The notes below the pieces were generated by a model, which was given only the letters and a program-made list of their open reading frames with translations, was not told where the DNA came from and made no database searches. Shown here piece by piece: positions 19,309 through 51,560 of a DNA stretch of 64,000 nucleotides (within the stretch, counting starts at the first letter, position 1; each line of letters starts with the position of its first letter). The DNA is from Candidatus Anstonellales archaeon (GTDB taxonomy: Archaea > Micrarchaeota > Micrarchaeia > Anstonellales > J096), in contig JAWAFD010000002.1 in assembly GCA_038890745.1 (NCBI GenBank), positions 160,001-224,000 on the forward strand. Direction: 5' to 3'. Made by a program: the position numbers and the translations under genes.

Positions 19309-20871
19309 ATGAAAAGCCTACCTCTTTTCTTGATCGGCTTTATGTTTCTTCTCCCCTCCCTGTCTGCTCAGGTTATTACAGAAGGCGGAAATGTAACAGA
19401 GGTTAATCTGAATGTTACAGAATTCCCCACGAGCCGATGGGCTGGGATTGTTGGGTGGATGAACCATTCCGCAACCCCTAATCCTGACCTTTCCATATAT
19501 GATATAAACATCCCATCATCCGGTATATACACCGCCTGGCCAGAGGGAAACTACTATGACATGCCCCTCATTGTTACACGGCTTTCTGTGAAACCAGACC
19601 CCGCGTATTTTCAAACTCCGGTTCTGAGCGATTTTCTTGAATACGGGATGTTCTGGAACTTTACTGTTTTTAACGGGTGGAGCTTTTCCATCGCAGACAG
19701 CCCGAACGCAACCCTCTGCAACCCATGTACGTATACAACATGCGAAATCCTATACCTCTCAATCCCGTGCGTATACATAAACCTTGCGCAGGATTTTCAG
19801 ATGAAGGTTTTGAAATTTAGCAATGGAACGGATGTTGAGCCAATATTCATATGCAACATCTCAAACGGAACCGGTTACAATGGAACGGTTTATGAGTTTG
19901 AGTACCTTGTTCCTGCAAAAGAGGTTTACTCATTCTACATCTATCCGCAGGAATGCAACATCACTGTTTACATAGATGGTGTGCAGACAACCGTTTTCCC
20001 AAATACAGCTAATGTTTATGACCTCCGTGCGGTTGTAAGGCACAGAAACCTTTCAATTGCCCAGAACGCAACCGTTTATTTGGTTGAAGAGAACGGGAGG
20101 AACATTCTCCTCCCCATCCTCGGTTTAGGAAAAGAATACAAAGAGGTCTCTGCGATGAAAACAAACTCAACCGGAGAGGTTAGGTACGCGGCAGCACCAA
20201 CAAGATACAACATTCCAGATTCCTATGGCTACCGAATCTATCTTCTCTCCCTAGACCCCTACTGCATCCAAAACCTCTCGATTGCCGATTACTCCTCAAT
20301 CTCTCCCCGCTACCGTTCTTCCCTCATAGACAATTCCTACTCCAGCCAAGTAAAAAGCTCTGTTCAGAATATGAACGCGCTTGCCTCCACAACAACAAAA
20401 TGGATAACCCAGCAGAAAACAAAGGAGCATTACATAAACGCAACAACCTCTGGCTATGCAAATACAAGCACCCTAAAAGTTGGTGCGCCGAACAAAATAA
20501 ACATAACCCTCCGCGATGGAGGAAATATTGTAGAAGGCGAGCTTAGGATAAGCGATAGCGATGGTTACATAATTGTTGCCCCCCTCCAGCCAGAGAAAAT
20601 TTTCTACTCAAACAACGCAACCTTCTCAACATACGAAGAGTTCACCATCATCCCTACACGCTACAACAATAACGCAAATTTCACGATAAAAGTTTTTTAC
20701 AACTACATGAATGTTGCAAATGTTACATTCACATACGATGAGCTTCTTGAAGACCCGCAGCCATCAGACCCTACCATGGACCCAGCAACCCACTCCGCTT
20801 TTTCAGCCGGCATCCAGAACATAAACATCGTTCTTATAAACATGGGACGGAGCATCTCAACCGTTCCATGA
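19309..20871 (+). CDS. Secreted surface protein: N-terminal TEGGNVT-type domain plus two repeated beta domains
   Basis: Signal peptide; ITEGGNVTEVNL..TSRWAG and YEFEYLVP..YSFYI match the 31018 protein; duplicated E/DxxG...P...PTRYN domain. Confidence 0.8.
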   Translation: MKSLPLFLIGFMFLLPSLSAQVITEGGNVTEVNLNVTEFPTSRWAGIVGWMNHSATPNPDLSIYDINIPSSGIYTAWPEGNYYDMPLIVTRLSVKPDPAYFQTPVLSDFLEYGMFWNFTVFNGWSFSIADSPNATLCNPCTYTTCEILYLSIPCVYINLAQDFQMKVLKFSNGTDVEPIFICNISNGTGYNGTVYEFEYLVPAKEVYSFYIYPQECNITVYIDGVQTTVFPNTANVYDLRAVVRHRNLSIAQNATVYLVEENGRNILLPILGLGKEYKEVSAMKTNSTGEVRYAAAPTRYNIPDSYGYRIYLLSLDPYCIQNLSIADYSSISPRYRSSLIDNSYSSQVKSSVQNMNALASTTTKWITQQKTKEHYINATTSGYANTSTLKVGAPNKINITLRDGGNIVEGELRISDSDGYIIVAPLQPEKIFYSNNATFSTYEEFTIIPTRYNNNANFTIKVFYNYMNVANVTFTYDELLEDPQPSDPTMDPATHSAFSAGIQNINIVLINMGRSISTVP

Positions 20872-20884
20872 GCAAGGTGATAAA

Positions 20885-23057: not shown

Positions 23058-23154
23058 TCTCCAATCCGTTTGTTTTTCTTTTTTATTTTGATCTCTTTTT
23101 CTTTTCAAAAAACAAAAACCAATTTTTATAAACTTTCCCTTCAAATTGTTAGCG

Positions 23155-24840
23155 ATGAAAAGATTGATCTTGCTTTTGTTTCTCTCATCCATAGTTTTTT
23201 CTGCTTATGGAAATATAGTTGACAATTCAAACATAATCCGCAATGTTACCTCTTCAATCTCATACAAGGTTTATGCTGATACATTTGGCGTTAACCCTGA
23301 TTTTGCGCTCATGCTCTGTGGGGCAAGCGGGTATGCGGGTGCTGTGTATTCCGCGAATGTTTCGGGCGCTCCTGTTTACATAACCATAAGCAAAAACCTG
23401 AGTGCAGGGGCAAACTCAACACTAGTCTACACCTCTCAAAATGTTAACTCAACATGCAACCGCACACCGGTTGATCAGTTTGCATTTTCTCAGTTTCAAG
23501 ACATCACCCGAACCCCAAGGGTGTATGTTTCTGCCTTTCCCGGCAGAATTCACATTCTTTACTCTTCAAGCGTAGATGGCTCAAACCCTGAATTTGCAAA
23601 GGTTAATTATTCAAACGGCTGGCTGAAGGGCGACTACTCTGTTACAAGAATTTTTGATGAGAACATCGCCCGAGTAAACGCAACGGTGAGTACGATTACT
23701 TTTGAAACAGATATGGGAACAATTACTCAGAGCGCAAGCGACCCGGAGTGGGGTCTAAACTCCTCAACCGGAAGGAGCATGTTGATTGCTTTGTGCGAGG
23801 ATGACTACGGTGATGTGTGCAGCGATGCAGTGGTAATAAACTCTTCCTCTCAATTCCCAGCACGCTTAAACCTCAACCAGCCCATAGGGGATACCTCTCA
23901 CTATGACAGATATGTTGTTGTGGATGGCTTAGGCTATCCCATATGCATCGGTGCAGACCTTTATGTTTCCATCTCCACCCCAGGCTCTCTTGGATATGGA
24001 GAATCCGGAAATGTAAGTATTACGATTACAAACATCGGAAATGTCCGGGTTACAACAGATTTCGTGATCAACCTTTCTGTTTCAGGGCCCGGAGGGCACT
24101 ACAATTATACCGAATGGACAATTACAGAAACCCTACTTCCAGGCCAGAGCACAACAAGAAACTATACTTTCTTTGCAACCGGCCAGAGTGGAACATATAC
24201 ATTTAGAACTTTTGTTGATACGACGAATGTAATAAGCGAGTGCAACGAAGGGAACAACAACGCAACCGGGACAATTACCGTTGTTCCGAGAAGAGTTCTT
24301 CATGTTAAAATAGATGACAACGAAACATACTATTTCCCTCAATGGGGATATCCTTACAATGTAACCATGTGGGTTACGGACAGCGACAACAACACCCTTA
24401 CCGGATTAACCTTCAAAATTACAGAAACAAACGGCTTAAATCCATTTGTCCCAACTCAACTCTGGAACAGCTCCGGAACAGTGGTTGGGCTTAAGAGCTA
24501 TTCCATAGGGGAATTCGGTTCAAACTCTTCTGGTTATGCCATGTTCACAATCATCCCAACCTGCAACAAGCTCTACACAACCTACATAAGCGAAAATGTG
24601 GATGTTTATGTAGGCAACTATTCCATTACTGTGAATGTATACCAAGGCGGCTCTCCTGTTCCGCTCTATTTCAACGGCTCAACAGTGTATGACCACCCAC
24701 TCTTTGTTTCAAACACCTCGTGCTCTGTTCCTCCATGGACAAACAACAAGGAGCTGGTGAATAAAGACAGGTACGTTCTTCCAATATACGACTGGCTGTA
24801 TGAAGTTTATTCAATAATGAAAAGAATAGCAAACCCGTGA
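23155..24840 (+). CDS. Secreted CARDB-domain surface protein
   Basis: Signal peptide; ADL...ITNIGN...VDTTNVISECNEGNN CARDB motif; C-terminal domain paralogous to the 19309 protein. Confidence 0.82.
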   Translation: MKRLILLLFLSSIVFSAYGNIVDNSNIIRNVTSSISYKVYADTFGVNPDFALMLCGASGYAGAVYSANVSGAPVYITISKNLSAGANSTLVYTSQNVNSTCNRTPVDQFAFSQFQDITRTPRVYVSAFPGRIHILYSSSVDGSNPEFAKVNYSNGWLKGDYSVTRIFDENIARVNATVSTITFETDMGTITQSASDPEWGLNSSTGRSMLIALCEDDYGDVCSDAVVINSSSQFPARLNLNQPIGDTSHYDRYVVVDGLGYPICIGADLYVSISTPGSLGYGESGNVSITITNIGNVRVTTDFVINLSVSGPGGHYNYTEWTITETLLPGQSTTRNYTFFATGQSGTYTFRTFVDTTNVISECNEGNNNATGTITVVPRRVLHVKIDDNETYYFPQWGYPYNVTMWVTDSDNNTLTGLTFKITETNGLNPFVPTQLWNSSGTVVGLKSYSIGEFGSNSSGYAMFTIIPTCNKLYTTYISENVDVYVGNYSITVNVYQGGSPVPLYFNGSTVYDHPLFVSNTSCSVPPWTNNKELVNKDRYVLPIYDWLYEVYSIMKRIANP

Positions 24841-24844
24841 TAGG

Positions 24845-26719
24845 ATGAAAAAAATTTTTATCCTTGCCTTGCTTTTCTGCCTTACTTTTGCCCAGTACTA
24901 CCAAGTCTATCTTGTTCTTGAGAATGAAACCATCCACTCCCTTGTTTATGATAACCCATCATTTTCTTATGCAGATAACTCCATGGAAAACCCGAACATC
25001 TATGTCCGCGTTTGCGCCCTTAATGCGAGCGAGCTTCAGAACAAATGGGTCGCGCTTGTTTACGCAGACGGAACAAACGGCCAGTACATTGAAATAGACA
25101 ACGGGCCCGTGCAAATAACCTCTGTTCCTCCAAGCTTGTGCGTTAATCTAGATGTGGACATTTCTTCTTTCAAAGCATGGTACCCATCCATCCCATTTGT
25201 GATAATTGCAGATAACAAAGCCCTTACCTCCTCGCCTACTCGATGGAAGCTTTCCCAATCTCGCGGATGGCTTGTTGGCAATTATACCATGAACGCAACC
25301 AGAATAGGAAATACTGTTTATGTTAATGTTACCGGCGCTGTTGATGATTCTTTTGCAACCTACATTGTTCCTGTTGTTGACTATCTTGTTGTTGGGACCG
25401 TTCAGAGCGATGGACTTACAACAACAGATACAAAAATAGTTAGGTTCAACCAAACAGCAACCCTTTCGCTCGGGGCTTACACAGGGAATTACACAATAAT
25501 GATAAACGGGATAGGAGGAGAATTTCCACCTTATGTAAGAATAATTTCCCCACAGCCAACAACCTACCCACCCGGCGATATTCCTTTTATTTTTACAATA
25601 ATAGAATTCGAGCCTTTGGATTCCTGCTGGTATGTTTTAGATAGCCGCGCCTACACCCTTCCTGATTGCCATGCTTCCTACATCCTTTCCGGCCTTTCTG
25701 CCGGCTCCCATTCCCTTTGCCTGTATGCAAACGACACCTCGAACAGGATAGGAAGCGACTGCGTTTCCTTCTCAATCTCAGCTCCTCCTCCTCCTCCACC
25801 ACCAGGTCCAGGAGGAATCGGAAAGCCACCCAAGCCACCTCCTCCACCCATCCCTCCTGCACCAACATTCAGAATAATTCCTGAGGAGCTTTTCCTCTAC
25901 CTTGAGCTCATCTATCCTTATGAAGCTTCGGACACTTTCTCCCTTTGCGCCGATTATGCTCTCTCCAATATTGAATGCGAAATTTCCGGTCCATACGCAG
26001 AGTATTACTCCGTGGAACTCTCATCACATTCCCTTAACAACTCCTGCATTAATGGGACTGTTTCTGTAAAATTTCCAGTTTCGATTGCGCTTGATATTGA
26101 TGAAAACGAAAACCTCCTATACTGCTATGCACAGTACGACAGCATTTCCTCTCTTGTTGCAAAGGGAAATGTGTATACTATTGTTCTAAAACCAGAGCTT
26201 GAATCCACAAACCTCTCATACTCTCTTTACATAGGTCAGGAGATAAACGCAACCCTCCCCATCACAAACATAGGAAAGGCAAACGCAACAAACATCACGG
26301 TTGAAACCTCTCCAAAATATGAAGAGTGGCTTGGTGCCTACACGATAGGGAATATAGGGGTTGGAGAAACCCATTTCCTCTCCATCCATATTAAAGTTCC
26401 AGATGACGCCCAGCCAGGAAAATACAGAATTCCGATTACTATTTCTGCAGAGAACGCGCGCGCAAAAACATATTATATAGAAATAACAGTAAAGCCAAAA
26501 CCAGAGCTTATTACTTGCGCATTTGATTTCAATCTTCTCGCTACTATCTGGCCATTAATCCTAGCAATGCTCCAGCCCATTGCTGTTTTTGAGTATTACC
26601 GGGAAGATAAAAAATGGAAGGAAAAATCCCTCCGCCTCTCCTCCCTGAATGCCCTCATCCTTCTCATTGTTTGGCTGGTTATTTTCTACTTCATTGCCTC
26701 AAAATGCCTCCCTCTCTAA
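24845..26719 (+). CDS. Membrane-anchored surface protein (Ig-like domains, poly-Pro linker, C-terminal TMs)
   Basis: Signal peptide; GSHSLCLYANDTS Ig motif; PPPPPPPGPGG linker; VPDDAQPGKY; two C-terminal hydrophobic helices. Confidence 0.82.
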   Translation: MKKIFILALLFCLTFAQYYQVYLVLENETIHSLVYDNPSFSYADNSMENPNIYVRVCALNASELQNKWVALVYADGTNGQYIEIDNGPVQITSVPPSLCVNLDVDISSFKAWYPSIPFVIIADNKALTSSPTRWKLSQSRGWLVGNYTMNATRIGNTVYVNVTGAVDDSFATYIVPVVDYLVVGTVQSDGLTTTDTKIVRFNQTATLSLGAYTGNYTIMINGIGGEFPPYVRIISPQPTTYPPGDIPFIFTIIEFEPLDSCWYVLDSRAYTLPDCHASYILSGLSAGSHSLCLYANDTSNRIGSDCVSFSISAPPPPPPPGPGGIGKPPKPPPPPIPPAPTFRIIPEELFLYLELIYPYEASDTFSLCADYALSNIECEISGPYAEYYSVELSSHSLNNSCINGTVSVKFPVSIALDIDENENLLYCYAQYDSISSLVAKGNVYTIVLKPELESTNLSYSLYIGQEINATLPITNIGKANATNITVETSPKYEEWLGAYTIGNIGVGETHFLSIHIKVPDDAQPGKYRIPITISAENARAKTYYIEITVKPKPELITCAFDFNLLATIWPLILAMLQPIAVFEYYREDKKWKEKSLRLSSLNALILLIVWLVIFYFIASKCLPL

Positions 26720-28069: not shown

Positions 28070-28103
28070 TTAATCTTTTAAACAGTTCTGTACATACTTG
28101 GTT

Positions 28104-30923: not shown

Positions 30924-31017
30924 AATAGTTCATATTTATGTTTTTTTGTATTTTTTCGAGAGAGATTGCGCGAAACCTTTTTAAACTTTATGGTAGACAT
31001 TTCAGCAGGTGAAAAGG

Positions 31018-31734: not shown

Positions 31735-31763
31735 TCTTCCTCTTTTTTCTTTTTTTCCTTCTT
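31735..31763 (+). terminator. Archaeal oligo-T terminator
   Basis: Pyrimidine run containing T6 and T7 tracts just after the stop codon. Confidence 0.6.
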
Positions 31764-31775
31764 GATGCTGCATTT

Positions 31776-31829: not shown

Positions 31830-31855
31830 TAAACCTTTCCCCATCCAAATCTCTC

Positions 31856-37900: not shown

Positions 37901-40900
37901 TATTCCTGACCGATTCTACTAATAATAGAGTAGTAAATTTCACTGGCTACAACTCAGCAAATTTTTTCATCATGGACTACAGCGGTTCAAACAACTTTAC
38001 AAATATAACACTAAGAAACGGTGGATGGGCAGGGATATGGATAAGAGGAGTGGATAATTCAATAGTAGATGGTTTTGATATTCAAAACATAACAGAAAGC
38101 GGCGGAGTGGTATATGGTGGTATTTATGTTTCAAGTGGTGGCGATAATAATATAATAAGAAACGGAAAAATATACGATTTGGTTACCTATGGAATTCAAG
38201 TTAACGGAAGTTATAATAATACTATAACAAATGTTACAATATATAACTCTACTTCAGAAAGTGGAATATTCATTTATGAGGATACCGCAGATAACAACAA
38301 AATATACAATTCAACAATTTATAGGAATGCAGATTATGGAATATATGTAAATGGCGCAGATGACCTCCTTATATATAATACCAATATAGAAAACCATACC
38401 TCAGGATACGAGGTTTATCTTTATGCTCCAAGCAGTCTTGTTTCTGTAAGCAATATTTTAATTCAAAACAGCCGGTTTGTAAACAACAAATCCATAAATA
38501 CGATGGGAATTAATGCAATATATGGCTCCAACATTACAGTTGATAACTCAACCTTTACAGGAATTTATATTGGTGCGTATTTCAACCAATCAAATACAAT
38601 TACTATTAAAAATTCAACATTTTTGAGAAACGGAAAAGCAGGGATATTTTTTGATTCCACAACTAGCTCTTCTGTTTTGGATAACGATATAAACGATACC
38701 TATTGGACTTCTGATGACCCAGGAGGAATTTATCTAGGATTCTGCGATTGGAATTCAGTAAATTTTTACAAATTTGAAGGAGGAATAATTCTCTGCTACT
38801 CAAACTATACCCAAATTTCTTATAATTATTTAAAAGGAAATGGAACATGCACAGACAATTGTATCGCTAACCACAATGGCTGCGAAGCAGGAATTTTTAC
38901 TTACAACTCAAAACTAAACAATATTACTTATAACATTTTCAGAAACTCAGGAGACAATTACGATTCTTTATATTTCTACTCTTACGATACAAACTATTGG
39001 TATAACGATCAAAACGGCACAGACCCATTAACAGGAAACAACAATGTAAATGATGGAATAAAATTAGACAATTCAAGAGGATTTAACATTTCTCACTCTA
39101 ATTTCTCAAATAATCGTGAGTGGGGAATTTTTTTGACAAACTCTAACGATACTTACATCTACAACAATACTGCAAGTTATAATACCAATGTGGGTATTCG
39201 TTTAGCTAGCTCAGCAAACAACACAGTAATCTACAACACAGCATTTAAAAATCAACAAGGATTTAGAGTTGAACAATTAGAAGCTATTAATAATATTTTC
39301 AAAGATAATACAGCATATAGCAACTCTTACTACGGTTTCTACCTTTACTTTAGCTCCAACAACACCCTTTCCAATAACACAGCATATAGCAACTCTTACT
39401 ACGGTTTCTACCTTTACTTCAGCTCCAACAACAACACCCTTTCCAATAACACAGCATATAGCAACTCTTACTACGGTTTCTGCCTTTACTTCAGCTCCAA
39501 CAACAACATCCTCTCCAACAACACTGCATATAATAACAATATTTATGGAATTTATCTTTATCAGAATGCAGACAACAACACAATTGTCAATAACACAATA
39601 TATAACAATTCAATTTATCAACTACTTATTAATGAAACCTATCCTTCTTATGATAACAAAATATACAACAACATCTTCAACGCTTCAGCGGGCCAAGGAG
39701 TAGTCTACGATTCAGGAACAAACTATTGGAACACCTCCTATGACTGCACAGGAACAAACATAATAGGTGGAGACTGCATAGGAGGAAACTTCTACTCTAA
39801 CTACACAGGAGCTGATGATGGTTCAGGCGCAACCTATCCTCATAATATTGCAGGGGATGGAATTGGAGACAATCCAGATGACTACTATATCTATGGAGGA
39901 AGCAACATTGACTACCTTCCATTAACAAATCTTAGAACTGCATGCTTCTATGCTGATACCTCAAACACAGTCTATACTTTAACAAGAAACCTCTATGGAA
40001 ACAAATCAGACAGAATCTGCATTACAATAAATGCCTCAAACATTACTATAGATTGTAATGGCTACAATATTACAGGAACATACCCATACACAGGCTACAC
40101 AATAGGAATAGGAAACTATGACTCAAGAAACAATGTTACAATCAAGAACTGTTACATAACCAACTACACATTTGGGATATACGCAAACTTATCAAACCAA
40201 TACAACATTACAAACAACTCATTAGTAGCAAACGGAAAAGCAGGAATTTTCTTTGATTCAACCGAAAACTCCACAATCTGGGATAATGATATAAACGATA
40301 CCTATTGGACTTCTGATGACCCAGGAGGAGATTACTTCCAATTCTGCAACTGGAGTGCAGGGAATTTCTCAAGATTTGAAGGAGGAATAATTCTCTGCTC
40401 CTCAAACTATACCCAAATTTCTTATAATTATTTAAAAGGAAATGGAACATGCGGTGGTGGCGGACCTGGCTGTGGGTCTAACCACAATGGCTGCGAAGCA
40501 GGAATTTTTACTTACAACTCAAAACTCAACAATGTCACCCACAACACATTCAGAAACTCAGGAGACAATTACGATTCTTTATATTTCTACTCTTACGATA
40601 CAAACTATTGGTATAACGATCAAAATGGCACAGACCCATTAACAGGAAACAAAAATGTAAATGATGGAATAAAATTAGACCATTCAAGAGGATTTAACAT
40701 TTCTCACTCTAATTTCTCAAATAACTATGAGTGGGGAATATTCTTTACATGGTCAAATGACTCCTACATATACAACAATACTGCAAGATATTGTGTAGGC
40801 TCAGGTGGAGTTGGTATTCGTTTAGCTCGCTCAGCAAACAACACAGTAATCTACAACACAGCATTTAAAAATCAAGAGGGGTTTAGAGTTGACTACTCAG

Positions 40901-43900
40901 AAGCTATTAATAATATTCTTAAAGATAATACAGCATATAACAACTCATGGTATGGTTTCCACCTTTCCTCCAGCTCCAACAACACCCTCTCCAACAACAC
41001 TGCCTACAGCAACTCTTACTACGGTTTCCACCTTTACTTCAGCTCCAACAACACCCTCTCCAACAACACTGCATATAATAACAATATTTATGGAATTTAT
41101 CTTTATCAGAATGCAGACAACAACACAATTGTCAATAACACAATATATAACAATTCAATTTATCAACTACTTATTAATGAAACCTATCCTTCTTATGATA
41201 ACAAAATATACAACAACATCTTCAACGCTTCAGCGGGCCAAGGAGTAGTCTACGATTCAGGAACAAACTATTGGAACATTTCCTATGACTGCACAGGAAC
41301 AAACATAATAGGTGGAGACTGCATAGGAGGAAACTTCTACTCTAACTACACAGGAGTGGATGATGGTTCAGGCGCAACCTATCCTCATAATATCTATGGA
41401 GATGGGATAGGAGACAATCCAGATGACTACTATATCTATGGAGGAAGCAATGTTGACTATCTGCCATTAACGAACAACCAAACATTGTGCTTCTATGCTG
41501 ATACCTCAAACACCGTATATACTTTAACAAGAAATCTCTATGGAAACAAATCAGATGGAAACTGTATTACCATAGTTGATTGGACTACAAACATTACAAT
41601 AGACTGCAATGGGTATAATATTACTGGTTGGGGTGTAGGAAAGGGCATATTCTCTGCCTATTCAAGCCACAATACTATAAAGAACTGCAACATAAGAAAC
41701 TATACCTATGCGATGGACTTAAGGGTAGGACAAAACATTTCAGTTTTCAACAATAACATTACAAACAATACAAATGGAATTGCATTGATTGTAGACATAA
41801 AACATTCAAGGCTTTACAATAACTATTTCTATGATAACACTGGAAGCAGTTTTTACATGGTATATGGTTGCGATAATGTAAGTTTTTACAACAATACGAT
41901 TGAAAAAAGTGGTGGTTGGGCTATTTCTCTCAGGGATACTACTACAAATTCAAGAATAGAAAACAACACTATTTTTAATGGAGATAATGTTGGTATTGGT
42001 CTTTATCCCAGCGACACTCTAAACAATACAATAAAAGGAAATAGCATATATAACCAAGGTTCATATGGTATATATCTTAGTTCTGGCACTAACAATAACA
42101 CAATTTCAGATAATATTGTTTATAACACTACAAACTACCAAATTGCTATATCTTCTTCTAGCGACAACCTTATCTACAACAACATCTTCAACGCTTCAGC
42201 GGGCCAAGGAGTAGTCTACGATTCAGGAACAAACTATTGGAACATTTCCTATGACTGCACAGGAACAAACATAATAGGTGGAGACTGCATAGGAGGAAAC
42301 TTCTACTCTAACTACACAGGAGTGGATGATGGTTCAGGCGCAACCTATCCTCATAATATCTATGGAGATGGGATAGGAGACAATCCACCAAACTATTCTA
42401 TATACGGAGGAAGTAACTGGGATTATTTACCACTTACCAATAACATAACTTATGCAAGATGCTTTTATGCAAACATTTCAAACACTGTTTATACGCTATC
42501 AGGAAATCTCTATGGAAACAAATCAGACAGAATCTGCATTACAATAAATGCTTCAAACATTACAATAGATTGCAATGGATATAATATTACTGGCAACCAC
42601 TCGCTTACTGAAAACACTATAGGAATAGGAAGCTATGTTGGATGGGAAAATGTTACGATACAAGGCTGTCATGTGAGTAATTATACATACGGCGTATATG
42701 CGTATTCGTTTAATAACACGCTAATTGATGAACTGAATTCTATCAGAAATCATTTTGGAATTTACCTCAATCAAACAACGAACTCAAACATTACAAACAG
42801 CAAGATAGAAGTTTATAATGAAACCGCATGGAGTAGAGGAATCTATCTAGTAAATTCAAGCGGAATAAGAATTTCATCTTCTCATATAAACCGAACAGGT
42901 TTAACCTCTGCGCCATGGGCGATTGGAATTATGCCGTGCGCTACAAACGATACTATAATTGAAAGTTCAAACTTTACAGATAGACTAACAAGGTCTATAT
43001 TTGTAAGCATATGCAGAGAAGTCGACGGGACAGAATTCCAAGCACCGACCTATAATCTTACAATAAAAGATAATCATTTCTGGAATACAGAAACTGTTAT
43101 AGCCCTATGGGTTAATTATAACACTTCAATAATCAATAACACAATTGAGTATTACAGAGGATATGGAATTGTTTCTGGGTATTTAGGTCTGCCAGGTGAA
43201 TATTGGGATTTGCTCATAGAGAATAATACAATAAGGAACGCTACTAATTGTCTAGATGACCCATCCTACTCAGGCCATATGACCGGGATATACATAGATA
43301 CAAACAGCGGAGGATGGACGGTTAGGGGAAACAGAATAGAGTACATGCCTACATTGGGAATAGATTTGGATGGAGTTGGAGGGTATTCTTATGATATGCT
43401 TTTTGAAAATAATGTGTTCAATCATACTGGAGAGAATGATTATGGAGCGGGATGTAATCCAACTCCAAATATGGGTGGCGTTTATTTTGGAGGGATTGAA
43501 AATTCAACAGTGCAGAACAATATTGTTGAGAATTTTGGTTCATCGATTGGAATAAATTTTTGGTGGAGGGAAAACCAAAATGTTTTGGTTCAGAATAATA
43601 CTGTTTTCAATGGGAATGCAACGGGAATTGGAGGGTCTGGAACTCAGAATAACATAACAGTTCGGAATAATACTGTTAGTTTTGCCCGAGCAGGTATTGG
43701 ATTCAGTTCTACAAGCAATTCAGCTTTTTATAATAACACAGTACACGATAATACTAAAGAAGGTATCGCTATTTCAAACGGGTATAATAATACATTGCAG
43801 GACAATCTTGCCTATGCGAATATGTACGGCATTTCGTTGAACAATGTTGTTAACCATACTTTGTTGAATAACAATATGACCAACAACCGATATAACTTCT

Positions 43901-46830
43901 ATATAGAAGGTTCCAGTGTTCCACACTTTGTGCATAATATAACTACAGACAATATAGTTAGAGATACGGTTCTTGATTCTTCTGACAAATATATATATTA
44001 TTATGTCAGGAATGTGACTGGGGACGGTTTGTATGATACTACAGAGCCAATACCTACAAATGTTGGTTTTATTGGAGTTGTTAACTCATCAGATTTCTTA
44101 GTTGAAAATGTTTCCCTGCACAATAACTCCCATGGGTTGTTATCTGTTCTTGCTAACAATGTAACTGCAAATAATGCTACATTTTACTATGAATACATAG
44201 GAGCATATCTGCTTTATTCAAGTAACCATAATATAACGAACTTAAATTCTTCTTCTAATGGTGCAGGTGGATTTAGATTATACTATTCGGATAAAAATAA
44301 TATAACGGATTCAGAGATAAAAAATAATGGCTTGTTTGGCGTTGATTTAAGATACACAAACAATACAATAGTCGAAAACAATCAGATTCACAATAATTCG
44401 TACTACGGTTTTAGAGGTTATGCTTCTTCCTATAGTAATAAAATTATTAACAATACGATAGGGTCGTTCCATAATATCAGCATTTATCTAAACAATGCGC
44501 CCTATACACTTATAGAGAACAATACAATTTATGAAAGTAACATTGATGGAATACATCTATTCATGAACTCTAATTGCAACATAATCAACAATTCCATTAC
44601 TTCAAACACACAATATGGTGTTAGCATCCATTACCAGTCTTCTAATAATACAATACTCTACAATACTATAACAAATAATGGCTACTCAGGACTCTACATC
44701 TTGATATCTGTAAACAACACTATTGCAGGTAATACTATTTCTGACAACACCCAAAATGGAATATATTTATTTGGGTATGCCAATGAAAACAATATAACAA
44801 ACAATACTATCTCGGACAACTTTTTCAATGGAATAAGGATAGAAGCTGGGTGTAGCAACAACCTCATCTACAACAACATCCTCAACAATACCTATAATAC
44901 ATATGACGATGGCACTAACTATTGGAACTATTCCTACTGCCCAGGCGGGCCTAACATAATCGGTGGACAATGCATAGGTGGAAACTACTATTCTGATTAT
45001 GATGGGATAGATGATGGAAGCGGCTCCCCACCCATTCATAATATTGCAGGAGATGGAATAGGAGATAATCCGGACCAGTATGCGATAGGTGGAGGAAGCA
45101 ACATTGATTACATGCCTTTGACAAATAACCAACTAGGAATGAATTGCATGTATATAAATTCAAACACAAGCCTTCTTGCGAACTTGGTTGGAAACAAATC
45201 AGATAGGGCGTGCATTACGTTTAATGCTTCAAATATCTACTTAAACTGCTCCGGTTATAATATCACAGGAAATGTCTATGATCCTGAAAACAAAACATAC
45301 GCAATAATGACAAACGGATTTGAAAACATAAGCATAATAAACTGCCCAAACCTAACCAACTATTCTTTTGGAATATATGTTAATGGTACAAAAAATGCAA
45401 CGATAAATAATGTAACCTCTTACAAAAATACCGATAGCGGGATAGGAATAGTAGACAACAGCAGCCAGATAGAAATATCAAATACAACCCTTCCTTTCAA
45501 CACGGAAAATGGAATATTCATAAACTCCTCTTCCCAAGTGAACGTTTACTCAACAGAGATATACAACAATCCCTACTCAACCCTATTCAATGTAGGGATA
45601 TACTCTCTAAACTCTTCCAGAATTTTAATCTCAAATGCTTCAATATACAACCATAGCACCTATGGAATTTTGGCTTACGACACGTCACATATCAGCATTT
45701 CTGACTCCTACTCGATATTCAACCAAATTGCAGGAATGTATCTTAATGCAGGGAATAACCTTACGATGCAAAACAGCAACTTCTCAAACAATACAATATA
45801 CGGTATAAGACTTAATGCTTTCGAAAACATTACAGGAAACAATATCACAATACACGGAACCAGAGGGGATGAGGCATTTTTAGCAGACTATTCCTACAAT
45901 GCAACCATCTCAAACTCTTCAATAAGCTTTAACTATCTTAACGCTATACGATTATTCACTTCTGCAAATTTCACATTCAATAATATCACAGCAAACAATA
46001 ATACAAGAGGGATCTACATAAACGACTATACAAACGGAACAAGAATACTTAACTCTAACATAAGCTTCAACAGTGATAAAGGAGTGTTTTTCACACAAAC
46101 AACAGATAATAATAGAATGGAAAACAGCTATATTTGCTTCAATACCCAAAAGGATATAGATAATCAGGACGGAACAGATAACAACGGCTCATTGAACACA
46201 TGCGACACATACTATCAGTGGAAGGATGATGAACTGCCAGATGGATGCGCCATGACATGCACTTCTATATGGCATTATTTCTATGGAAATATTACTGGTT
46301 TGATTTTGCTTGGAACAAACTGGACAGAGCCAAAATTCATGTCCAACTGGACTCCTGCAATAGTGCACATGTATGTATTCCCAGAAGGAAATACAATAAG
46401 CTGGTTGGAACTTCAGGCATTAGGAAGAAAGGCAGATAATACAACAGCAAGCAATGATTTTGAAGAGGCGGACATAGCTTTGGGAATAGACCCTGCATTA
46501 GTGGATAGCATAAACAAAACATTCAGCATAGATGGAACACTTCCAATAGAGAACACGACATATAGGGTATGGGGTAGGGATATTGCAAACATTTCCATCG
46601 CAAACTCAACGGATAACAAGAATTTCAAGACAGGTATTTTGTGGGACACGAGCGATGGGGGAACAGAATTTACTTCTGCAGAGCATCAGGATTTGGTGTT
46701 TATGACAAATATTACATGGGACGGAGAAGGAAAATGGGGAACATATGATTATGAAATAAGAGTGCCTTCCCAGTTTGCCACCTATAATGGAGGAGCAGGT
46801 AGGGTTATAATTTATCTAGAGGTTCAATAA
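34957..46830 (+). CDS. Giant (3957 aa) surface protein with multiple NosD/CASH beta-helix modules and a C-terminal TEGGNVT-type domain
   Basis: Uninterrupted ORF; signal peptide; four LYKC..F...C...W domains; repeated GGNFYSNY...GDGIGDNP module ends; C-terminal FYGNITG...YDYEIRVP...IYLEVQ; no TM anchor. Confidence 0.9.
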   Translation: MVEMNKKTAVALLVAIALVFALTSEYSISIDRSEYYVGEAVNITVTMPLKVYAVKLYITLPSNETEETPAIRCRTGLCLYQYFPDQPGHYIVGLFDRNISVEFDVLRNENETAPPLINITPTLPRLSYYDERTNLTFFYYLIPTEEGYGDLIIENITPHLPALVLNNFSLNSSLFIHAYELNISENQTILKIKNYSQNISENISTEATNITENLTENITENTSEEIALEITETKNTTEENFSEIINENNTGLNETENITENLTEIESETEIRNLYNVIFVNLSGTNFSYAEYYILLEYDTLLSCVNFTNETCALWEKANSTQDGIFAILNSTSDFLVAGQLNISYPLDISENISLNVSEENISEINITPLEDEVYKQLEIVFIDMGFDYYEDFWTYDSVEEEVQELLIQNAFFVVYDEKGEGRIPEYIISMVDEKHANVGIFKPIQSVPVITFYSLYLDKELKMSAYDINDSAFVLDTYYLFYPYGIVYAEKKGEYLYSCEDFSYDYTCRTGFKELNYTLQKGKAVFNITKEQKLFLWTEKPLTIPGGEQNATELLPSININISDTRGKQKNYTYEILEYTGRYASVTFYFSPEERIHSITLYNLSLSGEPFILLDEFSNSILLVDLSNSDFDYSVVIAKDYGGDLYKCKEFDKNYSCSGGWEKWPYFASGGYIVFKLLPEDPLFIQTINLSTVTTLNIIDPFGNPVNGSYEILDNSTGLDVQINFNSGQVLQLTIYDIPDDGYSHTIVVGDTFVNDSENNMTNTFVIDLSNISYNYSNVVARNSGGDLYKCSTFSSNFSCLSSWELYPYTNNGVNRSFNLTEGDPMFGYEKEGNISIFDITSCTAITTSGYHTLDNNLVGNTSNSIGGYYYCIAIRVSNVELNCQNYEIRGNSAGSTVGIIIYDPPLAINPLTNVTVRNCNVLNYSRNLMIDSALTTDHSQITIRDSRFNLSSGNSIRVEDCDDSNFTNLVVDRTSDGGILFLTDSTNNRVVNFTGYNSANFFIMDYSGSNNFTNITLRNGGWAGIWIRGVDNSIVDGFDIQNITESGGVVYGGIYVSSGGDNNIIRNGKIYDLVTYGIQVNGSYNNTITNVTIYNSTSESGIFIYEDTADNNKIYNSTIYRNADYGIYVNGADDLLIYNTNIENHTSGYEVYLYAPSSLVSVSNILIQNSRFVNNKSINTMGINAIYGSNITVDNSTFTGIYIGAYFNQSNTITIKNSTFLRNGKAGIFFDSTTSSSVLDNDINDTYWTSDDPGGIYLGFCDWNSVNFYKFEGGIILCYSNYTQISYNYLKGNGTCTDNCIANHNGCEAGIFTYNSKLNNITYNIFRNSGDNYDSLYFYSYDTNYWYNDQNGTDPLTGNNNVNDGIKLDNSRGFNISHSNFSNNREWGIFLTNSNDTYIYNNTASYNTNVGIRLASSANNTVIYNTAFKNQQGFRVEQLEAINNIFKDNTAYSNSYYGFYLYFSSNNTLSNNTAYSNSYYGFYLYFSSNNNTLSNNTAYSNSYYGFCLYFSSNNNILSNNTAYNNNIYGIYLYQNADNNTIVNNTIYNNSIYQLLINETYPSYDNKIYNNIFNASAGQGVVYDSGTNYWNTSYDCTGTNIIGGDCIGGNFYSNYTGADDGSGATYPHNIAGDGIGDNPDDYYIYGGSNIDYLPLTNLRTACFYADTSNTVYTLTRNLYGNKSDRICITINASNITIDCNGYNITGTYPYTGYTIGIGNYDSRNNVTIKNCYITNYTFGIYANLSNQYNITNNSLVANGKAGIFFDSTENSTIWDNDINDTYWTSDDPGGDYFQFCNWSAGNFSRFEGGIILCSSNYTQISYNYLKGNGTCGGGGPGCGSNHNGCEAGIFTYNSKLNNVTHNTFRNSGDNYDSLYFYSYDTNYWYNDQNGTDPLTGNKNVNDGIKLDHSRGFNISHSNFSNNYEWGIFFTWSNDSYIYNNTARYCVGSGGVGIRLARSANNTVIYNTAFKNQEGFRVDYSEAINNILKDNTAYNNSWYGFHLSSSSNNTLSNNTAYSNSYYGFHLYFSSNNTLSNNTAYNNNIYGIYLYQNADNNTIVNNTIYNNSIYQLLINETYPSYDNKIYNNIFNASAGQGVVYDSGTNYWNISYDCTGTNIIGGDCIGGNFYSNYTGVDDGSGATYPHNIYGDGIGDNPDDYYIYGGSNVDYLPLTNNQTLCFYADTSNTVYTLTRNLYGNKSDGNCITIVDWTTNITIDCNGYNITGWGVGKGIFSAYSSHNTIKNCNIRNYTYAMDLRVGQNISVFNNNITNNTNGIALIVDIKHSRLYNNYFYDNTGSSFYMVYGCDNVSFYNNTIEKSGGWAISLRDTTTNSRIENNTIFNGDNVGIGLYPSDTLNNTIKGNSIYNQGSYGIYLSSGTNNNTISDNIVYNTTNYQIAISSSSDNLIYNNIFNASAGQGVVYDSGTNYWNISYDCTGTNIIGGDCIGGNFYSNYTGVDDGSGATYPHNIYGDGIGDNPPNYSIYGGSNWDYLPLTNNITYARCFYANISNTVYTLSGNLYGNKSDRICITINASNITIDCNGYNITGNHSLTENTIGIGSYVGWENVTIQGCHVSNYTYGVYAYSFNNTLIDELNSIRNHFGIYLNQTTNSNITNSKIEVYNETAWSRGIYLVNSSGIRISSSHINRTGLTSAPWAIGIMPCATNDTIIESSNFTDRLTRSIFVSICREVDGTEFQAPTYNLTIKDNHFWNTETVIALWVNYNTSIINNTIEYYRGYGIVSGYLGLPGEYWDLLIENNTIRNATNCLDDPSYSGHMTGIYIDTNSGGWTVRGNRIEYMPTLGIDLDGVGGYSYDMLFENNVFNHTGENDYGAGCNPTPNMGGVYFGGIENSTVQNNIVENFGSSIGINFWWRENQNVLVQNNTVFNGNATGIGGSGTQNNITVRNNTVSFARAGIGFSSTSNSAFYNNTVHDNTKEGIAISNGYNNTLQDNLAYANMYGISLNNVVNHTLLNNNMTNNRYNFYIEGSSVPHFVHNITTDNIVRDTVLDSSDKYIYYYVRNVTGDGLYDTTEPIPTNVGFIGVVNSSDFLVENVSLHNNSHGLLSVLANNVTANNATFYYEYIGAYLLYSSNHNITNLNSSSNGAGGFRLYYSDKNNITDSEIKNNGLFGVDLRYTNNTIVENNQIHNNSYYGFRGYASSYSNKIINNTIGSFHNISIYLNNAPYTLIENNTIYESNIDGIHLFMNSNCNIINNSITSNTQYGVSIHYQSSNNTILYNTITNNGYSGLYILISVNNTIAGNTISDNTQNGIYLFGYANENNITNNTISDNFFNGIRIEAGCSNNLIYNNILNNTYNTYDDGTNYWNYSYCPGGPNIIGGQCIGGNYYSDYDGIDDGSGSPPIHNIAGDGIGDNPDQYAIGGGSNIDYMPLTNNQLGMNCMYINSNTSLLANLVGNKSDRACITFNASNIYLNCSGYNITGNVYDPENKTYAIMTNGFENISIINCPNLTNYSFGIYVNGTKNATINNVTSYKNTDSGIGIVDNSSQIEISNTTLPFNTENGIFINSSSQVNVYSTEIYNNPYSTLFNVGIYSLNSSRILISNASIYNHSTYGILAYDTSHISISDSYSIFNQIAGMYLNAGNNLTMQNSNFSNNTIYGIRLNAFENITGNNITIHGTRGDEAFLADYSYNATISNSSISFNYLNAIRLFTSANFTFNNITANNNTRGIYINDYTNGTRILNSNISFNSDKGVFFTQTTDNNRMENSYICFNTQKDIDNQDGTDNNGSLNTCDTYYQWKDDELPDGCAMTCTSIWHYFYGNITGLILLGTNWTEPKFMSNWTPAIVHMYVFPEGNTISWLELQALGRKADNTTASNDFEEADIALGIDPALVDSINKTFSIDGTLPIENTTYRVWGRDIANISIANSTDNKNFKTGILWDTSDGGTEFTSAEHQDLVFMTNITWDGEGKWGTYDYEIRVPSQFATYNGGAGRVIIYLEVQ
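38628..42590 (+). repeat. Recent intragenic duplications (~1.6-kb module twice, ~270-bp module end three times, 66-69 bp tandem units)
   Basis: Near-identical DNA from ~38628 and ~40230; TACAACAACATCTTCAACGCTTCAGCGGGCCAAGG at 39664, 41209, 42175; SNNTAYSNSYYGF units ~39306-39540. Confidence 0.9.
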
Positions 46831-46868: not shown

Positions 46869-49800
46869 ATGTCCATAAGGGTTTTGCGTTTTGCGTTTGC
46901 ACTATTTCTACTTTTATCTATCTTCAACGCTGTTGATCTGAGTACCTGCGGTTCTCTCTCTTCAAATACCTACTACGAAGTAACTCAAGACCTTAATACT
47001 GGAGATTCCCAGACACCATGCCTTGTTGCATACGGCGTGTCTAATGTTGTGGTAAATTTGAAAGGGTATTCTGTTAGAGGAATAAAAATACAAAACTCTG
47101 CAAATAACATTACAATAGAAAACGGTTCATTAGCTCTTCCCGGTAATTATTTCGGATCTTTTGCTTACCTTAAAATATATATCCGCGATTCTTCAAATAT
47201 TACTATAAAAAACGTTTCCCACTATGCCTATTGTACATCCCCGGGATGTAGCGGCCCGGAGATAGCCAATTCAATGAATGTTTATTTCTACGAAGTTTCC
47301 TCCACCCTTCCATCTGATGCAAGAGGAGGCAACCCAAGCGTTTTTTTTGGTATTCAAAACACAACAAACGCTACATTTGAACGGCTTAAGTATTCTTTCC
47401 CGGACTCTCTCGGCCACTGCACAGCCTTGGCTTGGACAGCGATTCTTATAGATTCTTCGGGTTCTGGTGCTAAAAAATCAAACAATATTGTGATAAAACA
47501 ATCAGAAATAACAGGTTCTTGCAATGGAATACTTTCATATACAGAAAATTTGACGCTGTATAACAATATTATAGATACATACGACGTACAGATATGGCCG
47601 AAATATTGCAATAACAACATCACGAGCAACATGGGAAAAAACTCGCTCTACCCGATTGTTTACATGGAGCACAACTCCTCCCAAACCTATTCTCCTGGGT
47701 CAGTTTCTCAGCTTATTTTCTGCAATATCTCGAATTTTCAGGTCACAGGCCCAACAGCAATATACGGAGGAATTCTTCTCGTTAACTCTTCGAACAATAC
47801 ATTTAACGGATTCTCAACAAACACGACATACACGGGAATAGTTTTTGACAGGAGCAAAGACAACAAGTTCTATAATGGTGGAATGCATAATGGAGTTTAT
47901 GGGGTTTTGTTCTATGCAACAGATGGTGTTGCGTCCACAGGCAACTCATTTGAAAATACCTCGTCCTCTAATATCACAGACCGGGTGTTTGGAGGATGCG
48001 GAGTAAGAGGAGAGTGCGTGTGCAATTTTTCAGTAAAAAACGCCTCTTTGAATGGATTCCCTGCTTGGTTTAATACAACAACAAACGGAATTACTGTTTC
48101 GAATGTAAACCTAAATGAGCTTACTTTCTGCGATGTTGAAAACTCTACAGTGAGCAATGTCAATATAACAAACGGGACTGGCTTTTGGAGCTTTTCAAGC
48201 GCAAACATCTTAGTTGAAAACTCAAACATTTCCAATGCTCATTATCATAATCTTTTCTCATACCTTGATGATAACATTACAATAAGAAACAGCGATTTAA
48301 GCTATTTCAGGGTTGATCCCTCAGCACAATGGGCATACAGCCACTCTACTATGTTTTCGCGTTCTCAAAATATCACCGTCGAAAACATAACCTCATATGA
48401 AACGAACGGTTTCGCAGTTTATATCGGAACTAATGCAAATGTTTTCAACTCAAAAATCATAAACACAAAATCTGGCGGATGCTACTACTGCAGTTTTTCC
48501 CTTGGTTTTTCAGGGACGAACGCATGGGCAGAAAACAATACCGTAATTTCAGATGAAACCAATCTCTATGGTATTGTCCTTGGGATAGCGTATAATTATT
48601 TGGGCGGAAACATAACAGCAAGGAATAATACGATAATGGGAAAATATGTCGGCATCGCATTGAGCAATCATCCAGGATATCCCCAGCCAAACAATAATAT
48701 CGTGAACATTACGAGGAATCTAATCCAAAACTCTTCCTATGGGATTATGATAAACCCGAGCACAACAAACATTACAGAAATAAGCTTCAACAGAATAGAA
48801 AATAAGATCGCATCCCGTGGAAGTACTGCATGCATGTACTCTGTCGGCTCTTCATACAGAGGAATGAATGTATCCATATTCAACAATACAATGTACAATG
48901 CAACATATGGCTACTATGCCTCGTATGGGATAAGAGACCATATATTCAATAATACGATATGCAATGTAAATACAGTTTTCTACCTCTACCACTCAACAGA
49001 AATATACATAGGAAACAATTCTATATGCGATGATATATACACCCCCATAGATATAGTGAGCGATAATTCGCAGGAGTGCGCGCATGGAGTTAATTTCACA
49101 GTAAACGAAACAAACCCAGTTTATTTCAGTAACATAGATGATGTTGTTTTTGAAAACAACGACAGCATTGCGCAGATATTCTTGTGTAATGTGAGTAGAG
49201 CGCGGGTGCAAAACATCACGATGAGAAGGGAAAATGCCCAGTATGGCGTATGGGCCGTCCTCACACGATATAGCAACATTACAGATTTTAGATGTTATAA
49301 CATGAACTCAAATGTGTATTGTGTTTATTTCAAGCATTTGGATTTTGAAAATAGAGTAAAGGATTCTATCATCGTGAACAATACATATGGCATAAGGATT
49401 TCTGAAAATTCAAACACCACGCATGTCTATAACAACACCTTTGAAAACAACACCTATTCAGTTTATTTGGAAGGATACCTAAACAATATTTCAACCAACT
49501 CTTTCAAAAACCCAAAATCTGAGGGTGTAGAAGTTTATCTTTATGCCCTAAATTCAAATAATAATACAATAAGTAATAACACATTTACACAGTTAACTAA
49601 TGGGTATGCTTTTAAGATCGTATATAAGTCAGCCTCCGGGAATGTTTTTGAGTGGAACACTGTTAATGGCCCGGGTGAATACTATAGCCCGATTTGGATA
49701 TCCGGCCAAAGTAATACATTCAGATTTAATACACTAAACGGCACAAAAACCAGCTCTGGTTTCCTAAACAGAGCAAACGGCTCTGTTTTTTACAACAACA

Positions 49801-51560
49801 CAATAGAAAACTTCAGTGTCGGAATATATAATGACTACCGGCCAGGATGGTATGCTGGGAACAATTCTCTCATATACCACAATTTCTTTAGAAATATTAC
49901 AAACTATTATGTTTGGTGGGATTCGCACCTTACAGTATTTTTAAACACTTCAGTTTCAGGGGTTGCGCAGGGGAATTATTATGACGACATTCTAGAGTAT
50001 CAAATATACGATTCTGATGATAATAGCTACTGCGACTATGGAGACCAATACCCATACGGAAACCCGCCAACTGCAAAACTTCCTGCCACCCCGCCTTGGA
50101 AGGACTATGGACCCATAATCCTAGGAGGAATATACGATCATCCTAATGGAGAGAATGAATCCGCCTATTCAGCATTCTACCTCAACAAATACATCTATGA
50201 TTTGGAAAGGCACTACACTACTTCCTTTATTCGCTATAACCACTCAACCCAAGGATTAAGACTTATGGTAAAAGGCCATTTCCATTTTGGGGACGTAAAC
50301 ATAAGCAATGCGAGCATATACACAGGTGCTTTGGAAACTGGCGGAAACTACACAGTTATAAACGCCACCTCTGCGGCGGGAATAAACGAAACCATCTCAT
50401 TTTTTGTTCCAAACTTTTTGGACCAGGGGGTTTTTGTCTGCCCGAATGCAGAATCCCCGCAGGAGCTTACTTACAACTGCGAAGGATATACCTCTTTTGA
50501 CATTACAGAATGCGAGGCAGGAACAACAAAAAATGGAATAACAGTGAATTTAATAACTTTCCTAGGTCAGGAATACTACAACATTACGCATGCTCAAAAA
50601 AGGGGAGGGGCAGGGGAGGAGATAGGTGCGAACCTTACGATATGGGACACGAGCGATAACGAGACAATTTGCCCAGGAGAAAACATTACATTTTTTGCAA
50701 ACTATTCAAACGCAACTTCTGGTGAGCCAATCCTGAATGCAGACTGCAACATAAGTTTTGAGGATGGGGTTTCTGCGATGATGTGGTACAACGACTCAAG
50801 TTTGCTTTATGAATACAACAGAAGCTTTGATAACCCAGGAATATACTACTACAATGTCACATGCAATGCGACCGATTATCCAACGAGGTTTAGAGAGGAC
50901 CATGCACAGGTTTTTATATGCGGGGTGTATCTCTATGGAGTAAATGTTACGGTTATTAACATAAGCAAGTATAATTATACTTATGAGGTAGGGAGATATC
51001 CTCTTAGGCCAGGAAATATTACGAACCTTAATATAGACATGAATGTTTCTACAGAGAAATGGGCAGGCTTCTATGGCAATATCAGCAATGGAACATACTT
51101 AGTTTTAGGGGATGCGGTAGGAAATTTTATGTATAAATGGCCATGGGGAGGGGAGGAAGGAAAGGGAAGGGTTGTGTGCACAAGCACAAACGGAAGTTTG
51201 TACTTCATCAACCTTACCGGTGCTCTTGGAAGCGAGATAGATACAGCATGGAATTTCCTTCCGAACGCGGCTGATTCTGGAACGAACACATTCAACCAGC
51301 AGTGCGACATTACTTTTGGCGCGTATACAATACAAAATGCTGCATGCAGGCCTACAGGGTATTGGAATTTCTACACCCGTGCCCTCAAAATCTATCCGTG
51401 GCTTGGTCATAAGGACCAGATGGTATTCTGCACAAACATCACCTCTGCAACAAGCTTTGTGGATACTCCAGTTGATTTTGAGCTTATCGTTCCTACAGAA
51501 TACGGAATGGGCAGCGGCCCTCCTTATGAAATATACTATTTCTATGTATCCATAGAGTAA
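46869..51560 (+). CDS. Large (1563 aa) beta-helix surface protein with C-terminal TEGGNVT-type domain
   Basis: Signal peptide; beta-helix repeats; Ig-like domain; PGNITNLNI..STEKWAGFYGNI...DFELIVP...YYFYVSIE. Confidence 0.9.
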   Translation: MSIRVLRFAFALFLLLSIFNAVDLSTCGSLSSNTYYEVTQDLNTGDSQTPCLVAYGVSNVVVNLKGYSVRGIKIQNSANNITIENGSLALPGNYFGSFAYLKIYIRDSSNITIKNVSHYAYCTSPGCSGPEIANSMNVYFYEVSSTLPSDARGGNPSVFFGIQNTTNATFERLKYSFPDSLGHCTALAWTAILIDSSGSGAKKSNNIVIKQSEITGSCNGILSYTENLTLYNNIIDTYDVQIWPKYCNNNITSNMGKNSLYPIVYMEHNSSQTYSPGSVSQLIFCNISNFQVTGPTAIYGGILLVNSSNNTFNGFSTNTTYTGIVFDRSKDNKFYNGGMHNGVYGVLFYATDGVASTGNSFENTSSSNITDRVFGGCGVRGECVCNFSVKNASLNGFPAWFNTTTNGITVSNVNLNELTFCDVENSTVSNVNITNGTGFWSFSSANILVENSNISNAHYHNLFSYLDDNITIRNSDLSYFRVDPSAQWAYSHSTMFSRSQNITVENITSYETNGFAVYIGTNANVFNSKIINTKSGGCYYCSFSLGFSGTNAWAENNTVISDETNLYGIVLGIAYNYLGGNITARNNTIMGKYVGIALSNHPGYPQPNNNIVNITRNLIQNSSYGIMINPSTTNITEISFNRIENKIASRGSTACMYSVGSSYRGMNVSIFNNTMYNATYGYYASYGIRDHIFNNTICNVNTVFYLYHSTEIYIGNNSICDDIYTPIDIVSDNSQECAHGVNFTVNETNPVYFSNIDDVVFENNDSIAQIFLCNVSRARVQNITMRRENAQYGVWAVLTRYSNITDFRCYNMNSNVYCVYFKHLDFENRVKDSIIVNNTYGIRISENSNTTHVYNNTFENNTYSVYLEGYLNNISTNSFKNPKSEGVEVYLYALNSNNNTISNNTFTQLTNGYAFKIVYKSASGNVFEWNTVNGPGEYYSPIWISGQSNTFRFNTLNGTKTSSGFLNRANGSVFYNNTIENFSVGIYNDYRPGWYAGNNSLIYHNFFRNITNYYVWWDSHLTVFLNTSVSGVAQGNYYDDILEYQIYDSDDNSYCDYGDQYPYGNPPTAKLPATPPWKDYGPIILGGIYDHPNGENESAYSAFYLNKYIYDLERHYTTSFIRYNHSTQGLRLMVKGHFHFGDVNISNASIYTGALETGGNYTVINATSAAGINETISFFVPNFLDQGVFVCPNAESPQELTYNCEGYTSFDITECEAGTTKNGITVNLITFLGQEYYNITHAQKRGGAGEEIGANLTIWDTSDNETICPGENITFFANYSNATSGEPILNADCNISFEDGVSAMMWYNDSSLLYEYNRSFDNPGIYYYNVTCNATDYPTRFREDHAQVFICGVYLYGVNVTVINISKYNYTYEVGRYPLRPGNITNLNIDMNVSTEKWAGFYGNISNGTYLVLGDAVGNFMYKWPWGGEEGKGRVVCTSTNGSLYFINLTGALGSEIDTAWNFLPNAADSGTNTFNQQCDITFGAYTIQNAACRPTGYWNFYTRALKIYPWLGHKDQMVFCTNITSATSFVDTPVDFELIVPTEYGMGSGPPYEIYYFYVSIE

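Follow-up and report, generated by a model that had tools for sequence, protein, structure and literature searches.

In Enterococcus faecalis and other members of the Bacillota, passages of 10.64898/2026.10.17.759780 describe the WxL/Elr pilus as a shaft with an armless C-terminal-domain tip, an arm-only base and a TM-anchored helper. The same passages state that WxL is confined to Bacillota, and the main text of that source makes no mention of "DPANN", "Micrarchae" or "CWB2". Pam pili are built from Ig-like pilins, have PapD-like chaperones and, according to passages of PMC13278184, occur in CPR bacteria only. From archaea, passages of PMC12337348 report strand-donation filaments with jelly-roll subunits (Tafi/TafE, AbpA, the Saci_0406 thread and cannulae) in Halobacteriales, Archaeoglobales, Thermococcales and Thermoproteota.

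Little is settled about the ways in which DPANN archaea locate and keep their hosts. Unidentified thin filaments on a DPANN cell appear in a passage of PMC11329633, a separate observation that shows no tie to the genes presented here. These genes lie in a 64,000-nucleotide stretch of DNA (the window) from a Candidatus Anstonellales archaeon. Judged against the passages cited above, the system that they encode would in its working be most like the WxL/Elr pilus and the CPR Pam pili.

A Secreted Domain Shared by Four Proteins

Four open reading frames of the window encode a common secreted domain of ~190-210 aa:

19309..20871, + strand: base-class protein of 520 aa with signal peptide, the domain (aa ~21-212) and then a region of ~300 aa
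31018..31722, + strand: major-class subunit of 234 aa with signal peptide, arm and beta-rich core
34957..46830, + strand: tip-class giant adhesin of 3957 aa with beta-helix (NosD/Beta_helix) repeats and the core of the domain at the C-terminus, no arm
46869..51560, + strand: decorated subunit of 1563 aa with a beta-helix passenger N-terminal to a complete domain with arm

A preliminary description of this DNA had placed one common domain in these four frames, and the frames exist at the coordinates given; pairwise and family-profile alignments confirm the domain. Mature 31018 aligns with the C-terminus of the 1563-aa protein (pairwise E 8e-17) and with the N-terminus of 19309 (E 4e-8). Its pairwise alignment with the C-terminus of the 3957-aa protein is non-significant (domain i-E 0.23), and this region aligns significantly with family profiles only (E 3.8e-9 and 1e-10). 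In profile-profile comparison with the major class, the tip class scores 99.8% (E 2e-27, over major residues 41-210) and the base class 99.7% (E 6e-26, residues 20-209); since the class members were chosen by the same family profile, these figures are not fully independent.

Searches of Pfam, NCBIfam and PDB sequences returned no match for the domain, the predicted model of mature 31018 matched no solved fold, and a search of the literature, within the limits of the library used, found no description of the family. The surface system is real and conserved and lacks an existing name. At 50% identity, 1639 representatives match the domain (E<=0.001). Profile search of 201 Micrarchaeota genomes found the domain in 49; its occurrence in this set is patchy even inside genera, and two large families gave no hit (0/56 and 0/36 genomes). 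The closest homologues are labelled Micrarchaeota or Anstonellales, and further records bearing the domain are titled Woesearchaeota, Aenigmatarchaeota, Nanoarchaeota and Methanosarcinaceae. In the order to which a Methanosarcinaceae record (on a 1.1-Mb contig) belongs, 30 of 251 genomes carry it. The preliminary description had proposed a search across DPANN; relatives are found there, and the system also reaches beyond DPANN. Viral contigs and plasmids gave no hit. The source genome (989,524 bases, 93.8% complete) holds a second, paralogous set on contig C5, with a major, a partner, a TM-bearing base and a cut tip gene.

Four Classes of Domain Proteins

We split the domain proteins into classes by the start of the hit on a 230-position profile. 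Along this profile lie the arm segments A (24-31), A' (33-38), B (44-51) and C (52-58), followed by the core strands s1 (66-74), s2 (76-82), s3 (87-92) and s4 (98-105). Free majors, which are signal peptide plus domain and nothing else, start at about position 1-10. Full C-terminal fusions start at 18-32; in this decorated class, with 61 members found, the entire domain is C-terminal to passengers such as beta-helix, LamG-like, FG-GAP and others. The base class (39-47) carries the domain at the N-terminus, beginning at segment B, and the tip class (56-68) carries the core alone at the C-terminus. Three free majors (L159, L160 and L161) start at B immediately past the signal peptide; A/A' are therefore optional, and B+C can be a free N-terminus.

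A TM helix follows the domain in 20 of 28 C-complete bases, compared to none of 26 tips, none of 312 majors and 2 of 61 decorated proteins. The remaining eight bases are of the 19309 type, with an amphipathic helix as C-terminal end.

Within the window, the arm of 31018 comprises A, A', B (nt ~31153) and C (nt ~31177), and its core runs from nt 31225 to the C-terminus. The C-terminal domain claimed for the 1563-aa protein is present, but starts earlier than had been given, at nt about 50931 with A/A' upstream. In the 3957-aa protein the domain starts at W3772 (nt about 46255-46270), and the GGNVT segment is indeed missing, as had been noted. The same segment was said to persist in 19309 in front of a degenerate body: it is kept (nt 19378), but degeneracy is confined to s2-s4, with B+C retained and A/A' absent. 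Also in agreement with the preliminary description, inspection of the four N-termini by eye revealed no class III leader; they look like Sec/SPI leaders, and none of the four proteins has a TM helix past its signal peptide. N-glycosylation sequons number 7 in 31018 and 242 in the 3957-aa adhesin.

Reciprocal Conservation of Arm and Core

Conservation was expressed as bits per column against a major-class PSSM for 312 majors, 61 decorated proteins, 26 tips and 29 bases. In this first set the bases keep the arm (B 1.08, C 1.38) and lose the core strands (s2 -0.95, s3 -1.33, s4 -0.95). Tips show the reverse: B and C are absent (occupancy 0.05-0.07) and the core strands are kept (s2 0.99, s3 0.53, s4 0.35). 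A second set of 20 separate loci from the order of the Methanosarcinaceae record repeats both patterns, with bases at 0.95 for B, 0.27 for C and -0.93/-1.40/-1.24 for s2-s4, and tips at 1.47/1.11/0.53 for s2-s4.

These patterns bear on an alternative in which the domain is a self-contained handle, by which each protein singly binds the membrane protein 33200 (see below) as a display scaffold, without any chain. An arm docked on its own core would predict that arm and docking surface are kept or lost jointly; the opposite is seen, which speaks against such a handle. It would leave unexplained why, in two lineages, the loss falls on s2-s4 in TM-anchored bases that retain the arm and on the arm in tips that retain s2-s4, why proteins already anchored in the membrane (the 20 bases mentioned above) should need a handle at all, and why one major without any passenger should have promoter-like and terminator-like signals to itself.

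We also compared bases and tips with the majors of their own and of foreign loci, in tests in which kin remain partly dependent even after clustering. Base B+C is closer to the major of its own locus (23 pairs in 18 clusters, permutation p 0.0005; with 13 clusters p 0.001), and the other base segments show no such tracking (p 0.11-0.62). The second set agrees, both for B+C (17 pairs, p 0.001; 7 clusters, p 0.015) and for the other segments (p 0.23-0.41). In the first set, strands s2-s4 of the tips track the major of the same locus (18 pairs; 12 clusters, p 0.0007; range p 0.0007-0.0025), which they do not in the second (p 0.27-0.39); the C-half of the first-set tips shows no tracking (p 0.11). 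Gene conversion or a common third partner could yield the same tracking.

Predicted Structure of the Major Subunit

The AF2 monomer model of mature 31018 (145 rows, pLDDT 88.8, pTM 0.83) contains no N-terminal helix, and with neither such a helix nor a class III leader the subunit does not look like one of a type IV filament. Residues 4-45 are without any beta-bridge, though block pLDDT is 74-90, and the extreme N-terminus folds back onto its own core. In 347 sequences, two of the strongest couplings join arm B to the first core strand (profile positions 46-70, z 10.7; 48-68, z 10.0). The preliminary description had named a self-complete monomer as the outcome that would contradict a strand-donating subunit. 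The bridge-free residues 4-45 argue against such a monomer, but the placement of the N-terminus argues for it. Both this placement and the couplings, which are compatible with a hairpin, are also what a self-contained handle would show.

The couplings, all in a single register, would likewise suit a hinge-type swap with small rise. The arm exchange would then be real, but instead of a long linear fibre it would give rings, short stalks, a tube or an S-layer-like mesh in two dimensions, the rings being closed ones. The many sequons on the subunits (median 7 per major) and a sub-threshold match of the neighbouring protein 24845 to a "putative S-layer protein" model (E 0.025) point the same way. 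Against a lattice, an anchored class that only donates and an adhesin class that only accepts suit a capped polar chain and would be needless in a mesh, and the patchiness within genera is unlike that of an essential wall protein. We regard closed or planar products as quite improbable.

A CWB2-like Membrane Protein Accompanies the Domain

The most constant component of the system is not among the four domain proteins, to which the preliminary description had limited its correct list of parts:

33200..34957, + strand: constant partner of 585 aa with signal peptide, a three-repeat CWB2-like Rossmann disc, two Ig-like domains and one TM helix

In the predicted model of 33200, three Rossmann-like repeats form a CWB2 disc. 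CWB2 is below Pfam detection in 33200 alone, and partners of its family match CWB2 and CARDB (29 scanned). The family is present in 44 of the 49 domain-bearing genomes, in all 39 with a domain hit at E<=1e-28 and in one of 152 genomes without the domain, the overlap being counted from two separate lists. Of 39 loci flanked by no less than 1.5 kb on either side, 30 have a homologue inside the fetched stretch, as do 19 of 20 second-set loci, and many genomes with two majors also have two partners of this type. We consider it likely that 33200 serves in assembly or anchoring.

In Clostridioides, surface proteins are anchored by CWB2 discs, and the module binds wall polysaccharide. Among known systems, the closest to the 33200 disc are the CWB2 modules of Clostridioides difficile Cwp6, Cwp8 and SlpA (PF04122; PDB 5j72, 5j6q and 7acz), whose titles agree with this anchoring function. 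In contrast to this wall binding, the archaeal disc belongs to a TM-anchored protein tied to a putative fibre subunit. Anchoring by CWB2, the tight linkage of major and 33200 genes and the paired partners of two-major genomes all favour the idea of a handle; weighed against the reciprocal losses in bases and tips, we judge it unlikely.

A Probable Split Anchor for the Base 19309

Most 19309-class proteins of other genomes carry a TM helix, unlike 19309 itself. Downstream of 19309, the window encodes two further proteins:

23146..24840, + strand: secreted protein of 564 aa with a CARDB domain
24845..26719, + strand: Ig-like protein of 624 aa with two predicted C-terminal TM helices

23146 weakly resembles both the C-region of 19309 (E 4e-4) and the N-region of 24845 (E 6e-5). 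At the loci of TM-less bases, a 23146 homologue occurs in eight of eight cases and a 24845 homologue in seven of eight, the eighth contig being cut. 23146 is thus likely to be a linker between 19309 and the membrane, and 24845 the likely membrane anchor of a split base. The preliminary description, which had suggested a base role for 19309, had overlooked this pair.

A Proposed Polar Fibre

The system is probably a polar, membrane-anchored surface fibre built by arm donation, which would work like WxL/chaperone-usher pili. Subunits would be exported via Sec, probably N-glycosylated, and meet 33200 at the membrane as an assembly or holding factor. Each would lend its N-terminal arm B+C (the "TEGGNVTxVNL" stretch) to the docking surface of the next. 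The shaft would consist of 31018. At the far end, the 3957-aa adhesin, with a docking surface and no arm, would act as cap, and the 1563-aa protein, with both, would be built into the shaft to add an adhesin at its side. At the cell, the chain would finish with 19309, in which the arm is present and the docking strands are lost; this protein would stop growth and hold the fibre. It would itself be held via 23146 and the TM protein 24845, while in most other genomes the base would use its own TM helix. The preliminary description had assigned the same roles of shaft, tip, minor adhesin and base. Reciprocal segment loss, TM anchors of bases, tracking by the base arm, the fixed operon and the bridge-free arm of the model support them, but the modelled N-terminus on its own core does not.

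Tips and bases of WxL/Elr type, that is, a C-terminal domain without donor and an anchored donor-bearing base, are found here, with B+C as the putative donor. As far as the passages of 10.64898/2026.10.17.759780 describe it, the WxL/Elr system shares with ours a small Sec-exported major, a large adhesin with a donor-less subunit domain at the extreme C-terminus, an arm-only base, a gene for a membrane-anchored helper and beta-helix payloads; an internal adhesin that gives and takes a strand is a proposal there too. It differs in that the helper here is a CWB2-like disc before two Ig domains instead of DUF916/DUF3324. The base here is a whole eroded domain with a TM helix or a putative three-protein anchor rather than the LPxTG/sortase of those passages, and internal adhesins that carry their passenger N-terminal to the arm are common here (the 61 decorated proteins).

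The fibre could also be real and its subunit not from a separate family but strongly diverged within one of the known donor-strand families (WxL, TasA/AbpA/TafE or chaperone-usher-like). The gene logic agrees with WxL, and by language-model features the nearest named clusters are WxL proteins (0.75-0.76, 102-108/256 features), which provides a lead only. At the level of sequence, however, the WxL domain PF13731 has no match in the source genome (E<=1) or in 145 family members (E<=0.1), and DUF916/DUF3324 were found in none of 29 partner proteins (E<=0.1), which are CWB2-based. We consider such a descent very unlikely. In mechanism it overlaps with the arm-donation fibre.

With Pam pili, as portrayed in passages of PMC13278184, the system shares a small-genome episymbiont, neither outer membrane nor usher, and, to judge from its genes, a donor-strand fibre logic with tip, shaft, anchor and TM-tethered helpers; unlike in Pam, our fold search found no match to an Ig-like pilin. 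Chaperone-usher Pfams (outer-membrane usher, PapD-type chaperone) were absent from 18 window proteins and 29 partners. The archaeal filaments, in passages of PMC12337348, resemble it in being archaeal and in having secreted, beta-rich subunits of ~210 aa whose N-terminus supplies a strand for donation, here a putative one. The CWB2 partner and the set of domain-fused tip, decorated and base proteins are absent from these passages, and TafE, AbpA, the Saci_0406 thread and cannulae were not among the sequence or fold search matches of the domain.

A wider reading seems to us possible, though tentative: a hitherto undescribed adhesive pilus of DPANN and Methanosarcinales-order archaea, with a subunit fold unlike solved chains, that serves as a host-capture organelle of symbionts and combines arm donation on a CWB2-based membrane factor with giant interchangeable adhesins at the tip and along the shaft. 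The arm-donation fibre would extend the range of strand-donation pili with associated helpers to the archaea, where they would be built from another family of subunits. It would also assign CWB2 a new function, explain how anchor-less adhesins of several thousand residues remain on the cell and offer such archaea a new candidate means of attachment to other cells. Its parts can be named: the subunit of 210 aa, the short arm as candidate donor, the tip domain that only accepts, and the partner. Occurrence in an order containing methanogens and ANME may provide a more tractable host.

Surroundings of the Major Gene

The preliminary description had credited 31018 with its own promoter and terminator. 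Candidate signals for both are present, read by eye at approximate coordinates:

30970..30986, + strand: BRE/TATA-like promoter "gcgaaacc-ttttaaa", 5' of the major gene
31740..31760, + strand: T-rich terminator-like run, 3' of the major gene

A scan for sigma-70 promoters, which is ill-suited to archaea, found nothing above chance. The fraction of C-ending codons in 31018 is 0.66 compared to 0.405 genome-wide (rank 7 of 816 ORFs); because 19309 ranks 11, this bias is weak evidence. Between the major and its partner 33200, whose genes are directly adjacent at most other loci, one additional gene is found:

31772..33120, + strand: AAA_14 ATPase gene, flanked by direct repeats of 58 nt with 98% identity

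This ATPase is outside the conserved system.

The locus and its neighbouring genes

Immediately 5′ of the major subunit gene lies a gene encoding a secreted beta-helix protein of 941 aa (window 28098-30923), which contains neither the domain nor a TM helix and ends in a C-terminal tail rich in Pro and Ser. The major subunit gene is separated from the gene of its CWB2/Ig/TM partner by an insertion, an AAA_14 ATPase gene (window 31772-33120) bordered on both sides by 58-nt direct repeats with an inverted repeat inside. Further ATPase genes resembling it are found at window 26765 and next to the paralogous locus on contig C5 of the same genome (L001 14619-15899). The giant adhesin (window 34957-46830) carries an acidic linker rich in Asn, Thr and Glu close to its N-terminus, and within it stretches of several hundred residues recur almost unchanged. 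The genes downstream (window 51601-58538) show no clear family and encode the following:

286-aa protein, leader containing KK
1398-aa protein, C-terminus resembling an amphipathic beta-strand series
599-aa secreted protein, Cys-rich, CARDB-like

A second system in the same genome

A second, complete-looking system is located at G000:C5:78141-86435 (= L001 10136-18436). It comprises a major subunit, a CWB2 partner, a TM-bearing base rich in Cys, and a tip gene severed by the contig end. The codon usage of its partner differs strongly (rank 730 of 816).

Variant architectures and a divergent branch

Some base-class proteins extend beyond their TM helix as a cytoplasmic part (P0061; L043 94-2328; L110 8799-10841). 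This part of P0061 gives HerA/CedD/TraD-like ATPase matches below cut-off, which would make P0061 a possible motor-linked base.

In P0060, an N-terminal arm with the first core strand is followed by a beta-helix and a C-terminal core of the tip type; this protein is either a fusion that occurs in nature and complements itself or a chimera created by the assembly. A major-like subunit (L137 6754-7896) carries a mid-domain insertion of ~145 aa.

Six loci (L130, L131, L133-L136) form a divergent branch, of use for widening the family profile, in which the majors (~200 aa) lack the usual GGNV motif, the tips are armless and the CWB2+TM partners are shorter.
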